Shown one piece after another: positions 32,750 to 37,457 of a DNA stretch of 64,000 nt (positions are counted from its first letter, which is position 1; each line of letters opens with the position of its first letter). The stretch comes from an uncultured Bacteroidales bacterium (GTDB lineage: Bacteria; Bacteroidota; Bacteroidia; Bacteroidales; UBA3824). The position numbers and the translations under genes are program-made. Below the pieces are notes generated by a model. It did not search any database and had not been told where the DNA came from. It worked only from the letters and a program-made list of their open reading frames with translations. The stretch covers positions 6,641-70,640 of the forward strand of contig CALFIU010000044.1 of assembly GCA_937877455.1 (NCBI GenBank). Direction: 5' to 3'.

Positions 32750-33751
32750 ATGACATTATTGGAACAAATAAGAGAGAATGCCAAAACGGCAAACAAACGT
32801 ATAGTTTTGCCCGAAGGCGAGGAAGAACGCACTCTCAAAGCCGCTGAAACCATTCTCGGCGAAGGTATTGCACAATTAGTGCTTATTGGAAACCCCGATA
32901 CAATAAAGGCTGAAGCCGAAAAATTTGGATTAAAAAACATTCAAAAAGCCGAAATTGTCAATCCTAAGACATTTGAAAACAAACAACAGTATGCTGAGCT
33001 TATGGCTCAAATACGTGGTTCAAAAGGTATGACTGTTGAAAAGGCATTAAAACAGCTTGATAGTCCGTATTATCTTGGTACATTGATGATTAAAGCAGGA
33101 CATGCAGATGGAATGGTTGCAGGTGCAATTTGTTCTACAGCCGACACAATTCGTCCTGCATTGCAATATATCAAAACAGCCCCTGGTGTAAGTACAGTTT
33201 CGGGAGCTTTTGTGGTTGTTGTTAAAGATAAAAATTATGGACAAGATGGCGTTTTCTTGTTTGCGGATTGTGCTGTAAACATTGCTCCAAATGCAGAACA
33301 ACTTGCTGATATTGCAATAATTTCTGCTAAAACAGCCAAAGCACTTGCAGGTATTGATCCAAAAGTTGCAATGTTGAGTTTTTCAACTAAAGGGTCAGCA
33401 CAGCACGAAATGGTTGACAAAGTAACAGAGGCTACAAAAATAGCTCAAGAACGCGCACCAGAACTCGAAATAGATGGCGAACTTCAAGCAGATGCAGCTA
33501 TGGTTCAAAAGGTTGCCGATTTAAAAGCCCCTGGCAGTAAAGTAGCAGGAAATGCTAACGTTTTGGTTTTCCCTTCATTAGAAGCTGGAAATATTGGTTA
33601 TAAACTTGTACAACGTCTTGCTGGTGCAGATGCTGTTGGACCTATTCTTCAAGGTATGGCTGCTCCTGTAAATGATTTGTCGCGTGGTTGCTACGTTGAA
33701 GATATTGTTAACATGGTGGCTATTACTGCTTTACAGGCTGTAAGTAAATAA
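32750..33751 (+). CDS. pta: Phosphate acetyltransferase
   Basis: From MTLLEQIRENAKTANKRIVLPEGEEERTLKAA. Also GMVAGA, STKGS and LVFPSLEAGNIGYK. It sits immediately upstream of ackA. Confidence 0.92.
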   Translation: MTLLEQIRENAKTANKRIVLPEGEEERTLKAAETILGEGIAQLVLIGNPDTIKAEAEKFGLKNIQKAEIVNPKTFENKQQYAELMAQIRGSKGMTVEKALKQLDSPYYLGTLMIKAGHADGMVAGAICSTADTIRPALQYIKTAPGVSTVSGAFVVVVKDKNYGQDGVFLFADCAVNIAPNAEQLADIAIISAKTAKALAGIDPKVAMLSFSTKGSAQHEMVDKVTEATKIAQERAPELEIDGELQADAAMVQKVADLKAPGSKVAGNANVLVFPSLEAGNIGYKLVQRLAGADAVGPILQGMAAPVNDLSRGCYVEDIVNMVAITALQAVSK

Positions 33752-33810
33752 TTTTTTATTTAAATTTTACTTCGATAAATACAGATATTAGTGTTTGTTG
33801 AGGTTGTAAA

Positions 33811-35025
33811 ATGGTAAAAAAAGTGAAAATTTTAGTAATTAATTGTGGTTCGTCGTCCTTAAAATATCAACTTTTTGATATGGACAAAAACGAAGTTTTA
33901 GCAAAGGGTGGCGTTGAAAAAATTGGTCTTCAAGATTCTTTTTTAAAACATCAAAAAGGTGAGGGTGAAAAAACTAAGATAGAAAAACCAATGAATGATC
34001 ATAAAGAAGCTATTGAGTTGGTGCTTAGTACTTTAACCGATCAAAAACTTGGTGTTATATCCTCACTTAGCGACATTGATGCAGCAGGACATAGAGTTTT
34101 GCATGGTGGCGAATTTTTTAAGGAATCTGTTTTGATAAACGACGAAGTTATTGCAAAAATTGAAGAAATAGCTCCACTTGGTCCGTTACATCAAATGGCC
34201 AACCTCAAAGGAATACGTGCAATAAAGGCTTTACTTCCAACTTTGCCACAAGTTGCTGTTTTTGATACAGCATTTCATCAAACAATTCCAGATTATGCGT
34301 ATTTGTATGCTATTCCTTATGAATTGTATGAAAAATATCATATTCGTCGTTATGGTTTCCATGGTTCGAGCCACAGATATGTATCAAAACGTGCTTGCGA
34401 AATTCTTGGACTTGACTATAATAAAACCAAAATAATTACATGCCATATTGGAAATGGAGCTTCATTGGCTGCCATAGAAAACGGTAAAGTTGTTGATACA
34501 TCAATGGGATTGACTCCTTGTGAGGGTGTAATGATGGGAACTCGTTGTGGAGATATTGATCCTGCTGTTTTCCCATATCTTTTCTCTAACAATGCACTTG
34601 ACCCTAAGGATATGGATAATTTTATTAATAAAAAATCAGGTGTACTTGGTGTTAGTGGTGTTTCGTCAGACATGCGCGATGTTGAGGAAGCCGCTTTTGT
34701 TAGAAAAGAAAAACGTGCTGCCTTATCTCTTAAAATGTATGACTATCGTATAAAGAAATACGTTGGAGCTTACATGGCAGCAATGAATGGTTGTGATGTG
34801 CTTGTTTTCACTGGTGGAATAGGAGAGAAGGGCGATACAACACGTCGTGGTGTTGCAATGCATCTTGAAAATCTTGGTATTGAGTTTGATGATACAATTA
34901 ACACAGGACTTAGGGATAAAGAGATGGTTATTTCAAAACCAACGTCAAAAGTAAAGGTTATTGTTGTTCCCACCAACGAAGAACTCGTTATTGCTCAAGA
35001 TACACTTGCGCTTACAAAAAAATAG
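33811..35025 (+). CDS. ackA: Acetate kinase
   Basis: ILVINCGSSSLKYQLF, AAGHRVLHGG, FDTAFHQTIP, YGFHGSSH, FTGGIGE. Confidence 0.96.
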   Translation: MVKKVKILVINCGSSSLKYQLFDMDKNEVLAKGGVEKIGLQDSFLKHQKGEGEKTKIEKPMNDHKEAIELVLSTLTDQKLGVISSLSDIDAAGHRVLHGGEFFKESVLINDEVIAKIEEIAPLGPLHQMANLKGIRAIKALLPTLPQVAVFDTAFHQTIPDYAYLYAIPYELYEKYHIRRYGFHGSSHRYVSKRACEILGLDYNKTKIITCHIGNGASLAAIENGKVVDTSMGLTPCEGVMMGTRCGDIDPAVFPYLFSNNALDPKDMDNFINKKSGVLGVSGVSSDMRDVEEAAFVRKEKRAALSLKMYDYRIKKYVGAYMAAMNGCDVLVFTGGIGEKGDTTRRGVAMHLENLGIEFDDTINTGLRDKEMVISKPTSKVKVIVVPTNEELVIAQDTLALTKK

Positions 35026-35044
35026 ATTAAAGCTTTTTAGTTAC

Positions 35045-35076
35045 AAAAAACCATGGATTTGTCCATGGTTTTTTTG
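35045..35076 (+). terminator. Rho-independent terminator of pta-ackA
   Basis: aaccatgga (35049-35057), loop tttg, tccatggtt (35062-35070), then a T-run to 35076. An A6 run sits upstream. Confidence 0.85.
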
Positions 35077-35295
35077 TATTTTTTGTGTAGATAATTTTGT
35101 AACATTTTTTATTTTGTTGGATTAATTGTTTAGTTAAAACGGCGATTATCCTATAAATATAGTTATTTATTACGTTAATAACAACACAAATAATTTTTCT
35201 AAGATTTTATTGGTAAAATTTGATAATAAAGCATGACAAAATTTTAAATAAAAACTTTTTTAGTAGTTGTAATAATAAAAATATATAAAAAAGCC

Positions 35296-35341
35296 GTTGT
35301 GATTTGCTTTCAAATTTTATAACTTTGCAGGGCAAATATAG
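35296..35341 (+). CRISPR. Solitary type II-C-like CRISPR repeat (no second repeat, no spacer)
   Basis: GTTGTGATTTGCTTTCAAATTTTATAACTTTGCAGGGCAAATATAG. Positions 2-21 are perfectly complementary to the tracrRNA 5' end (35607-35626). The start resembles the 47-nt Bacteroidetes II-C repeats I remember (GTTGTGATTTGCTTTCAAATT...). It contains an internal TAACTTTG -7 box (35320-35327). The 3' boundary is approximate. Confidence 0.75.
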
Positions 35342-35354
35342 TTTTTTTTTACTA

Positions 35355-35531
35355 CTATGGGCTGTTTTTGGATGTTTTGCCGCTGTTGAAATTGCTCAAA
35401 GCATCTTCACCCATAGGTATGATTCTACTCCCTGCTGCACTAATACCACACGGGGCGTTGTTGTCGTCAACATTCACCACCGCCCATCCTATAGAGTTGG
35501 TTCCTAAGTCAAGTCCTAATATCTTTTTCAT
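35355..35531 (-). pseudogene. cas9: cas9 5' remnant (first ~55 codons, RuvC-I motif only)
   Basis: From ATG 35531: MKKILGLDLGTNSIGWAVVNVDDNNAPCGISAAGSRIIPMGEDALSNFNSGKTSKNSP*. GLDLGTNSIGWAV is the Cas9 RuvC-I signature. The stop is at 35355-35357, only 13 nt from the solitary repeat. Confidence 0.85.
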
Positions 35532-35569
35532 TGTCGGAAAATTTTTTCCCAAAAATAAGAATAAAAAAT

Positions 35570-35600
35570 TTTGTAGTACAAATTAATTTGCATATATTTG
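35570..35600 (+). promoter_or_regulatory. tracrRNA promoter: -33 TTTG and -7 TATATTTG
   Basis: TTTG at 35570-35573, a 19-nt spacer, then TATATTTG at 35593-35600. The predicted start site falls at the first bases of the anti-repeat. The 12-bp palindrome CAAATTAATTTG (35579-35590) lies between the divergent cas9 and tracrRNA starts. Confidence 0.6.
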
Positions 35601-35606
35601 CACTAC

Positions 35607-35692
35607 AATTTGAAAGCAAATCACAATAAGGATTATTCCGTTGTGAAAACATTAGGTTTGCGCCTCGTCCTTCAACGGGGCGCACTTTTTTT
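35607..35692 (+). ncRNA. tracrRNA (type II-C-like), sequence modules intact
   Basis: Anti-repeat AATTTGAAAGCAAATCACAA. Nexus-like ATAAGGATTATTCCGTTGTGAAAAC (compare S. pyogenes UAAGGCUAGUCCGUUAUCAAC). Terminator stem TGCGCC (35659-35664) / GGCGCA (35679-35684) plus T7 (35686-35692). Confidence 0.8.
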
Positions 35693-35750
35693 ATAAAAAA
35701 AACACCTAAAAAATGGTATTACGTATATCCAATACCATTTTTTAGGTGTT
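35691..35750 (-). terminator. Long perfect hairpin terminating the lipoprotein/ABC operon
   Basis: 20-bp arms AACACCTAAAAAATGGTATT (35701-35720) and AATACCATTTTTTAGGTGTT (35731-35750) with a 10-nt loop. On the minus strand it is followed by a T-run (complement of A6 at 35695-35700). Confidence 0.75.
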
Positions 35751-35771
35751 AAAAAAGATAAGAGTTCCTTT

Positions 35772-37457
35772 CTATTTCAACGTAATTGTTGTTCCGATAT
35801 TTACGTATTTATCAGAACCAAACGAAACATTGAATACATCGCCAGAGGTGGTTGTGCCTTTCAACGTGAGTTTGCCGTTTGAATACGAATAATCGTCGGC
35901 AGTAAGCAGTTGTGCTTGTTTTCCAGAGCCTTTCTTTACTGTTAATAATGCAAAATTAGCGTCTTCAGGAGCGTTGTTGATGGTCAATGTTATTTCAACA
36001 TCTTCACCAGCGGTAGTCTCTGGCGCAGAAACGGTGGCTGTAGTCCAGTTCTTAACAAAAACGTTCAAGTCAACTGAAATATTAACAGTGTCTTTGAGAA
36101 TGTAAGTGATGTTGGAGATTGTTTTACCTTCCAAGTCTGCTGTGTGCTTGTAAGCACGTGTGCAACCATGCGGCTCGGTAAAATCTTTAATACAGAATGT
36201 AAATTCTGCTGGTTTCAACCAAAGGTTGTTGAGAAACTGCAAGCCGTATTTTGAGCCGTCGGTGGTGGTAAGGATAGCACCTTGCAAATTGTATTTCGTA
36301 ACGTCTTTAAGTCCGTCAAGCGAAATAACATAGTTGCCCCATTTTGCATCAAAGCCAGATGTTAAAATTGCTGTGGCTGTTTGAGTTGCAACGGTTGAAT
36401 TCCATTTGCCAAAACTGCCGTCTTCATTGTATTCTTTGTAATCAACAGGAGTGTTTTCCAAAACGGTAAAACGTGATTTGTCTTCAAGCGAATTGTACAT
36501 ATTCGCTTCAATTGCAACGTTAACTCCTTTTATACCATAAATTTTTGATTCAGTACCATTGATTTCATAATTAGCGTTTGCAAACGAAGTGCATTTTGAG
36601 TTGGTTGCCGAACTTACTGCGTCAACACCAAGATCTTCGAGAGTTTGTGCTGTTTTGCCAAGTTCTGCGGCGTAAAATTCTGCCCAAGTCATGTCTGTGG
36701 TTGCATATACGTATGTTGGTTGGTAGTCTGCAAGGTTTTCGTCGCAGAAAAGTTTTATGCAGGCTTTTCTGTTTGCTTCTGTCTCGTTTTCGAGCATTGC
36801 AGCGGCAAGCCAATATGCGTATTGACCTTTGAAAAACTCTGGGAAAGATGCCGAGTCGTTTCCATAACGAAACTCAAGATGGTAGGTTGTGCCGGGGGTG
36901 TCGCCCATAAAGAAGAAATACTTAAATTGATCTTCGTTGCCATCGTCTGATTTTAAGTAGTAACAACCATCTTTTTCTCCAGTCTGTGTGTATTCATGGC
37001 TGAAAACGGTTTGAGAATTAGCGTCAAGACCCGTGATTTTCTTGCCGTCAATTACAAATTTTGATACGCCACCGATAAAACCACAATTGAATTGGTAACC
37101 GTTTGGAAATCCGTTTGTACCGTCGCCATATTTCTCTTGAGCTTCTGCGCCGTAGATTGTGCCAGTAAATGAGGTTTTGAGCATTTCGTACGTGGCTTTG
37201 CCTGAGTATGAGTTGCCAGTGTACTTGGCGCAACATTCTACCCAATAATCGTCGTATTTTGATGCGCAGAAACCATTTTCTGTAAACAATTCAACGAATG
37301 TTCCGCTGATACTCTTCTGGAAGTCAGTGGCATCGGAAGTTGTAGCTGTTTTTTCTTCGGTTTTCTTGTTGTCGTCATCGTCGTCGCACGATACGTAAAC
37401 CAAAGATGTTGATGCTGCAAGTATAATTGCAGCGGCTAATTTTGTGTATTTGTTCAT
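35772..37457 (-). CDS. Surface lipoprotein, possible ZinT/YodA-like lipocalin region at the N-terminus
   Basis: 561 aa. Lipobox LVYVSC followed by DDDDD. The segment FKYFFFMGDTPGTTYHLEFRYGNDSASFPEFFKGQYAYW resembles the ZinT core as I recall it. It is the last gene of the ABC operon. Confidence 0.5.
   Translation of the reverse strand: MNKYTKLAAAIILAASTSLVYVSCDDDDDNKKTEEKTATTSDATDFQKSISGTFVELFTENGFCASKYDDYWVECCAKYTGNSYSGKATYEMLKTSFTGTIYGAEAQEKYGDGTNGFPNGYQFNCGFIGGVSKFVIDGKKITGLDANSQTVFSHEYTQTGEKDGCYYLKSDDGNEDQFKYFFFMGDTPGTTYHLEFRYGNDSASFPEFFKGQYAYWLAAAMLENETEANRKACIKLFCDENLADYQPTYVYATTDMTWAEFYAAELGKTAQTLEDLGVDAVSSATNSKCTSFANANYEINGTESKIYGIKGVNVAIEANMYNSLEDKSRFTVLENTPVDYKEYNEDGSFGKWNSTVATQTATAILTSGFDAKWGNYVISLDGLKDVTKYNLQGAILTTTDGSKYGLQFLNNLWLKPAEFTFCIKDFTEPHGCTRAYKHTADLEGKTISNITYILKDTVNISVDLNVFVKNWTTATVSAPETTAGEDVEITLTINNAPEDANFALLTVKKGSGKQAQLLTADDYSYSNGKLTLKGTTTSGDVFNVSFGSDKYVNIGTTITLK

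Follow-up and report, generated by a model that had tools for sequence, protein, structure and literature searches.

An intact tracrRNA gene beside a destroyed cas9 in an uncultured Bacteroidales bacterium, a probable relic of a lost type II-C CRISPR-Cas locus

Introduction

Why should a tracrRNA gene persist with all its parts in place where the cas9 gene next to it has been destroyed? The locus that raises this question lies in a 64-kb stretch of DNA from the genome of an uncultured Bacteroidales bacterium; this whole stretch is called the window below, and the genome G000. An earlier note on the same DNA had offered three answers: the deletion may be very recent, the RNA may be kept for a Cas9 encoded elsewhere, or it may have a Cas9-independent or regulatory role. 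The evidence presented here favours a fairly recent deletion, whereas a Cas9 elsewhere was not found and a Cas9-independent role gained no support. We consider it likely that the tracrRNA gene is a neutral relic of a type II-C locus after a young deletion, and is not kept by need.

Results

The tracrRNA gene

The locus is composed of the following elements, given in window coordinates.

35296-35332, plus strand: solitary CRISPR repeat in the crRNA sense, with 36-37 of 47-48 nt left and an internal TAACTTTG box
35332-35360, plus strand: spacer-sized segment of 29 nt, GCAAATATAGTTTTTTTTTACTACTATGG, a probable self-targeting spacer
35355-35531, minus strand: cas9 stub of 57 cas9 codons (with the RuvC-I motif), then one codon and a stop from the junction
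35550-35557, minus strand: probable -7 box of the cas9 promoter, TATTTTTG, 18 nt upstream of the ATG, of putative function
35570-35600, plus strand: tracrRNA promoter, with -33 element TTTG (35570-35573), a 19-nt spacer and -7 element TATATTTG (35593-35600)
35579-35590, no strand: 12-bp palindrome CAAATTAATTTG, not a conserved element
35604-35626, plus strand: anti-repeat of 23 nt, pairing with the solitary repeat
35605-35692, plus strand: predicted tracrRNA transcript of 88 nt, its 5' end placed from promoter geometry
35621-35646, plus strand: nexus helix of the predicted fold, with a GGA-UUAU-UCC mini-hairpin at 35630-35639
35626-35650, plus strand: nexus-like ATAAGGATTATTCCGTTGTGAAAAC
35659-35684, plus strand: terminator stem TGCGCC.../...GGCGCA of 10 pairs, 7 of them G-C, then T7 at 35686-35692
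35701-35750, minus strand: hairpin with 20-bp perfect arms and a T-run, which terminates the convergent lipoprotein/ABC operon and lies outside the tracrRNA gene

Judged by its sequence, the segment 35605-35692 has the canonical form of a type II-C tracrRNA gene in Bacteroidota and is complete and free of decay. It is located upstream of and divergent from cas9, the ATG of which (35531, minus strand) is about 74 nt from the predicted start of the RNA. The anti-repeat pairs with positions 35297-35319 of the solitary repeat at 22 of 23 positions (96% complementary), and an A/T variant at GCAAATCAC co-varies between the anti-repeat and the repeat type, both for the window's own solitary repeat and across congeners. 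For the 88-nt RNA, a fold of -27.4 kcal/mol is predicted (z = -4.2 against shuffled sequences), containing the nexus helix and the terminator. The nexus follows the same logic as that of the S. pyogenes tracrRNA, where AAGG, a loop and CCGUU are followed by a linker.

Homologues with 84-93% identity are present in 12 species of the same genus, and in their alignment the promoter boxes, anti-repeat, nexus and terminator are in register with those of tracrRNA genes next to an intact cas9. The -7 box is kept in 12 of the 12 congeners and the -33 TTTG in about 9-10 of them, with equal spacing. A 29-nt core, TCACAATAAGGATTATTCCGTNGTGAAAA, is found letter for letter in at least 120 Bacteroidota species, while in an 88-sequence alignment the terminator hairpin varies in sequence from species to species, retaining its GC-rich stem. 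A scan of 34000-37000 with the Rfam covariance models (E <= 10) gave no match to any tracrRNA family, the Streptococcus type included, and only terminator noise. A covariance model was built from the 88-sequence alignment and run on 401 evenly drawn Bacteroidales species; it matches a tracrRNA in 116 of these, and the window copy, at 91.0 bits, ranks fourth among 117.

The congener alignment, the exact core and the fold bear out the identification of this gene in the earlier note. The features named there (TTTG, TATATTTG, the palindrome, ATAAGGATTATTCCGTTGTGAAAAC, the stem and T7) are all present where it placed them, the functional modules are indeed all intact, and its reading of the promoter is backed by conservation. 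The orphan tracrRNA is probably still transcribed from its own Bacteroidetes-type promoter. Its suggestion that the palindrome between the two divergent starts is an operator shared by cas9 and tracrRNA is rejected, since none of the 12 congener promoters has CAAATTAATTTG and perfect palindromes of 12 bp are common, occurring 20 times in the 64-kb window. The hairpin at 35701-35750 directly follows the tracrRNA terminator, the two terminators standing back to back within 90 nt.

The deletion scar

Read on the minus strand from 35531 to 35358, the stub translates as MKKILGLDLGTNSIGWAVV...SKNSP*, the RuvC-I N-terminus of a Cas9; the frame can also be written MKKILGLDLGTNSIGWAVVNVDDNN...SKNSP*. 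It matches TIGR01865 over model positions 2-37 (E 2e-9). With congener Cas9s as tblastn queries, only residues 1-53/57 are covered, and homology to Cas9 ends at codon 57. At the position of the cas9 -7 box, CAAAAATA is conserved in most congeners. Exact look-ups of the 58-aa stub product and of the lipoprotein product returned no record. The tracrRNA gene has been orphaned by a deletion, as had been proposed: cas9 from codon 58 on, cas1, cas2 and the array are gone.

The order of elements in the scar is a short repeat of 36 nt, the 29-mer and cas9 codon 57. The solitary repeat equals the repeat of congener G023 through position 36/37 and then diverges. The 29-mer, which directly follows the repeat, matches positions 3569-3597 of contig C63 of the same genome at 29 of 29 letters, so that a segment of spacer length has a perfect protospacer in its own genome. 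This target is the -7 box/promoter region upstream of a gene of 339 aa, in a context that looks native; the 339-aa gene is a core gene, occurring in 24 of 25 congeners. The 29-mer itself had no match at up to three mismatches in 24 congeners, its exact copy being confined to the window's genome.

Spacers in the genus are 29-30 nt long, which the 29-mer fits. At the trailer end of the array of congener G010, two units consist of a 36-nt repeat joined directly to a 30-nt spacer, the same geometry as in the scar; the 12-nt 3' extension of the repeat is optional at this old end of the G010 array. That array (contig C50 of G010, L034) contains 34 repeats, the first two units having a period of 66 nt and the others 48-nt repeats and a period of 78 nt. 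Because it has the length of the genus spacers and the geometry of the G010 units with 36-nt repeats, we read the 29-mer as a real spacer. It may then be a self-targeting spacer, and the cell may have escaped autoimmunity by losing cas9, a reading to which we incline, if only slightly.

The autoimmunity reading has its weak points. It requires the deletion to have stopped no more than 1 nt from the spacer boundary, and it requires a short repeat of 36 nt. The alternative is that the 29-mer is filler DNA, copied from the C63 promoter by template switching during illegitimate repair. The cause of the deletion would then not be autoimmunity, and the tracrRNA gene would still be a neutral relic. 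In favour of filler, a repeat survives on one flank only, truncated at 36/37, the downstream repeat having been deleted; N5TAAA, the PAM of F. columnare, which may not be that of the lost Cas9, is absent next to the C63 copy (PMC8092290); and the match is perfect, although a unit at the trailer end should hold the oldest spacer, unless the array was minimal. Against it, the segment has exactly the spacer length of the genus, 29-30 nt, and starts where spacers start in the 36-nt-repeat units of G010. Templated insertions of this kind are also uncommon in bacteria, which we count against filler; we regard it as a serious but second choice, about one chance in a few.

Two ways of producing the scar by recombination were considered and rejected. 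The repeat and the anti-repeat are inverted on the DNA, therefore recombination between them would invert the intervening segment, not delete it. Reciprocal recombination between spacer and protospacer is at odds with the flanks of the 29-mer, which in C44 are both CRISPR-derived, while the C63 site looks native.

Search for a partner Cas9

The tracrRNA might serve a Cas9 encoded elsewhere, on an unassembled or unbinned contig, or arriving on a mobile element. The genome available for the search amounts to 4.52 Mb in 198 contigs and is 97% complete, which leaves some room for such a gene. Over the whole assembly, however, a Cas9 HMM detected the stub only, and four Cas9s of congeners, representing three to four lineages, matched only its residues 1-57 in tblastn. 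The search for a trans-acting cas9, proposed in the earlier note, thus found none in the assembly, and a full-length cas9 with RuvC, HNH and PI domains is absent from it. A weak HNH match on contig C160 was considered as a possible Cas9 and rejected, since the open frame of 214 aa encodes a stand-alone HNH protein and adjoins an integrase-like gene.

The locus also lacks an adjacent cas1-cas2 pair and an array of at least two repeats, retaining one truncated repeat. This solitary repeat has no second copy in the genome, contig ends included, near-matches being at control level; a trans-acting Cas9 would therefore have no crRNA to pair with the tracrRNA. Moreover, the intact-cas9 loci that were examined have their own adjoining tracrRNA.

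Three cas1 genes are found elsewhere in the genome. Contig C86 (8462-9777) carries a type II cas1 (TIGR03639, 290 bits) and a cas2; upstream there is no cas9, and the contig breaks off after some 460 nt more. This module represents either another type II remnant lacking cas9 or a locus truncated by the assembly, and it leaves a small opening for a second type II system that was incompletely assembled. Divergent Cas9 lineages of the genus, including the 1388-aa type of G001, use the same tracrRNA scaffold, which would allow such a partner. Against this, the C86 Cas1 shares only 41-46% identity with the type II-C Cas1 of congeners and belongs to a different lineage. We consider a Cas9 acting in trans improbable.

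Related loci in the genus

In most congeners, the tracrRNA gene is divergent from a cas9 that is intact (about 1390-1550 aa) and has cas1, cas2 and an array downstream; the array has repeats of 47-48 nt and spacers of 29-30 nt. Other congeners present stages of decay. In G009, the tracrRNA is intact and a cas9 stub of 111 codons is joined to unrelated DNA; in G007, cas9 is broken at codon 12; in G022, a frameshifted cas9 is spread over three frames and the tracrRNA has no terminator; in G014 and G015, the array end is fused to the 3' half of a tracrRNA only; and in G023, the repeat stands alone. Among the congeners, 2-3 of 5-6 dead loci have a truncated or half-deleted tracrRNA, against 0 of about 9 live ones. 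As the remnants in G022, G014 and G015 cut into the tracrRNA, deletions do not systematically spare it. An intact locus at the window's site was not found in any close relative, and the age of the deletion is weakly bounded; zero changes in about 90 nt are compatible with up to about 3% neutral divergence.

Several further observations concern the exchange of parts between these loci. The dead loci of G014 (C25; L041 1054-1836) and G015 (C265; L030 1380-1545) are second CRISPR loci of their genomes, near glyA/ClC, the site of the live locus of relatives. They consist of a degenerate terminal repeat, a spacer, a full repeat, about 21 nt and a tracrRNA reduced to its 3' half, which runs from GAAAACATTAGG through the terminator. 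The same G015 contig carries a second tracrRNA variant (L030 375-490), with nexus AAGGCTATAAGCCGAAG, next to a cas9 starting MEKILGLDLGTNSIGLAV. The 1388-aa cas9 of G001 has the same N-terminal type as this MEKILGLDLGTNSIGLAV protein, is accompanied by a standard tracrRNA and directly adjoins its array, without cas1-cas2. G009 (L045) and G022 (L050) share about 100 nt of identical sequence in the tracrRNA and upstream of it, while their cas9 N-termini are of different lineages, a pattern that suggests cassette exchange by recombination anchored in the tracrRNA and the 5' end of cas9.

Frequency of orphan tracrRNA genes in the order

In the sample of 401 Bacteroidales species, the tracrRNA matches were crossed with the Cas9 HMM and the fetched loci were inspected. 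About 6 of the 116 tracrRNA-bearing species (about 5%) have an orphan tracrRNA or a truncated cas9: the window's genome, G009, G265 (117 codons), G297 (about 278 codons), G088 (no cas9) and G316, which also has no cas9 and in which the core is mutated to GTGTAAAC. A Daejeonella MAG (L115) has the same trio as the window, a tracrRNA, a stub of about 70 codons and a lone repeat. Five candidates were discarded: in a Polaribacter locus (L130), cas9 lies downstream and is co-directional, and in G039, G341, G358 and G073, cas9 is cut by contig ends, G039 being judged from its contig position.

The earlier note had implied that the persistence of the gene is a surprise. This is overstated: about 5% of the sampled tracrRNA-bearing Bacteroidales species are in the same state, and published work has reported degenerate type II-C loci (PMC3656092, PMC10309648). 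Selection cannot be read from the shortness of the stubs either, as longer truncations were classed as having cas9 and the set is biased. The orphan counts are likewise biased, because the searches looked for the tracrRNA itself.

One way to explain the recurrence is that the tracrRNA, the 5' stub of cas9 and one repeat form a landing pad for homologous recombination, through which a lineage could lose a Cas9 that has turned autoimmune and later take up a new cas9-cas1-cas2-array cassette, or that the RNA has a Cas9-independent role. The tracrRNA and the first 60 nt or so of cas9 are nearly identical in DNA across very different cas9 lineages of the genus. If true, either would account for the frequency of about 5% of this module among tracrRNA-bearing Bacteroidales species; we think it unlikely that either is.

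More specifically, the RNA could act as an antisense or scaffold small RNA and be maintained by selection. Orphans with a pristine core recur (G009, G265, G297, G088 and L115), the window copy scores near the top of the family and its promoter is intact. However, the orphans were found by searching for the tracrRNA, and intactness is what is expected of a 90-nt target after a young deletion. A gene of this size should remain intact for long without selection, and since the presumably useless stub of 171 nt is just as intact, the state of the tracrRNA gene is no argument for selection. The truncated tracrRNAs at dead congener loci and the mutated core of G316 also speak against maintenance. Sites complementary to the anti-repeat, which the earlier note had proposed to look for, are not enriched in the genome: at up to three mismatches, 14+16 matches were found, against 16+9 for the reversed pattern, which is control level. 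Finally, the known cases of tracrRNA-based regulation (scaRNA, tracr-L, ncrRNAs) require Cas9 (PMC6199352; bioRxiv 10.1101/2020.05.21.102756; PMC8224270). A regulatory role maintained by selection is therefore very unlikely.

Other assemblies of the same population

An exact-match search with the AckA protein identified three more assemblies, which come from the bioreactor sample or project of the window's own population. The junction of repeat, 29-mer and stub is identical in all three, an ENA k127 contig, a Logan contig and GenBank FLNW01002790.1, which were produced by different assemblers; the junction is real. Although the genome is a fragmented MAG, and an exact repeat of 29 nt between two contigs might mislead a de Bruijn assembler, an assembly artefact can be dismissed as most improbable, given these three identical junctions and the presence of CRISPR-derived sequence on either side of the 29-mer, an arrangement that could not arise by one chimeric join.

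One of the three runs from ackA to the lipoprotein gene. FLNW01002790.1 covers 33642-36249 with a single SNP, in ackA, and an identical tracrRNA. At 35395, two contigs have T for C, a non-synonymous change of stub codon 46 from S to N. At 35527, in cas9 codon 2, the ENA contig (ERR1278103; L234 9717-9840) switches from the window sequence to the terminus of a multicopy IS. The end of this IS, 51-55 nt of it, terminates at least eight contigs of the genome (C168, C55, C49, C142, C61, C30, C148 and C113). The population is polymorphic and the relic is still eroding. Since the scar haplotypes differ by about 0.1%, they give no power to test for constraint on the tracrRNA of about 90 nt. Two scans of metagenome contigs, one with the junction and one with the trailer flank plus repeat, gave zero matches in a set that may omit the window's own records.

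Discussion

Origin of the locus

The ancestral type II-C locus would have had the tracrRNA gene divergent from a cas9-cas1-cas2-array operon. A single deletion of about 6 kb or more probably took everything from cas9 codon 58 through the far end of the array, leaving the short trailer repeat, one spacer-sized segment, the 57-codon cas9 stub and the complete tracrRNA gene. If the segment is a spacer, the array carried a spacer against its own chromosome, in a unit repeat-GCAAATATAG...-repeat, and removal of the next repeat, cas2, cas1 and all of cas9 beyond codon 57 would have been a selected escape from autoimmunity. The deletion is presumably young, and the tracrRNA gene would be intact because it is small and the deletion young. 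The orphan RNA is probably functionless, and likely unstable without Cas9.

Understood as a neutral relic, the find is another instance of an ordinary, recurrent remnant, the self-matching spacer-sized segment being its sole noteworthy feature. The locus shows that intactness of a tracrRNA beside a dead cas9 cannot be taken as a sign of function. As a clean and well-documented example of the loss of type II-C CRISPR-Cas9 immunity, the locus has little weight alone. Its junction, however, keeps what appears to be the offending self-targeting spacer, making this a rare case in which the likely cause of Cas9 loss may be legible in the scar. The rate of about 5% and the decay series should aid annotation pipelines and temper claims of regulatory tracrRNAs.

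Comparison with known systems

Bacteroidota type II-C tracrRNAs with repeats of 47-48 nt (Chylinski et al. 2013, PMC3737331; PMC8092290, PMC10309648) occupy the same position, divergent from cas9, and have the same TAnnTTTG promoter type, an identical nexus core TCACAATAAGGATTATTCCGTTGTGAAAA, a GC hairpin terminator and an anti-repeat that likewise pairs with GTTGTGA(A/T)TTGCTTTCAAA repeats. The window differs from these loci in that cas9, cas1, cas2 and the array are gone, leaving the RNA with no protein or crRNA partner in the genome. In F. psychrophilum, cas9 has been truncated, lost or recombinationally swapped between tracrRNA and cas1 (PMC10309648). Tracr-L and the Francisella scaRNA, from which the regulatory analogy of the earlier note was drawn, act through Cas9, which the window's genome lacks.

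Degenerate type II-C loci are frequent in C. jejuni, where the cas9 stop mutant RM1221 has weak levels of tracrRNA and crRNA (Dugar et al. 2013, PMC3656092), and they occur in strains with plasmids or prophages (PMC3656092). There, as in the window, cas9 is dead and the tracrRNA gene persists, and loss is tied to tolerating DNA that would otherwise be targeted. In contrast to the C. jejuni point mutation, about 6 kb or more have been cleanly deleted in the window, leaving a 57-codon stub, and its spacer-like segment targets the core chromosome of its own genome, not a mobile element.

In F. columnare, with PAM N5TAAA, self-targeting type II-C spacers are selected against (PMC8092290). It is a familiar pattern that the effector is degraded where a self-targeting spacer adjoins it (PMC6990116), and there are prophage-associated cases (PMC7708048). 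The window resembles these in having a perfect host match of spacer length next to a repeat and a destroyed effector. It differs from them in that one repeat is left and that the target is the promoter of a conserved gene instead of a prophage.
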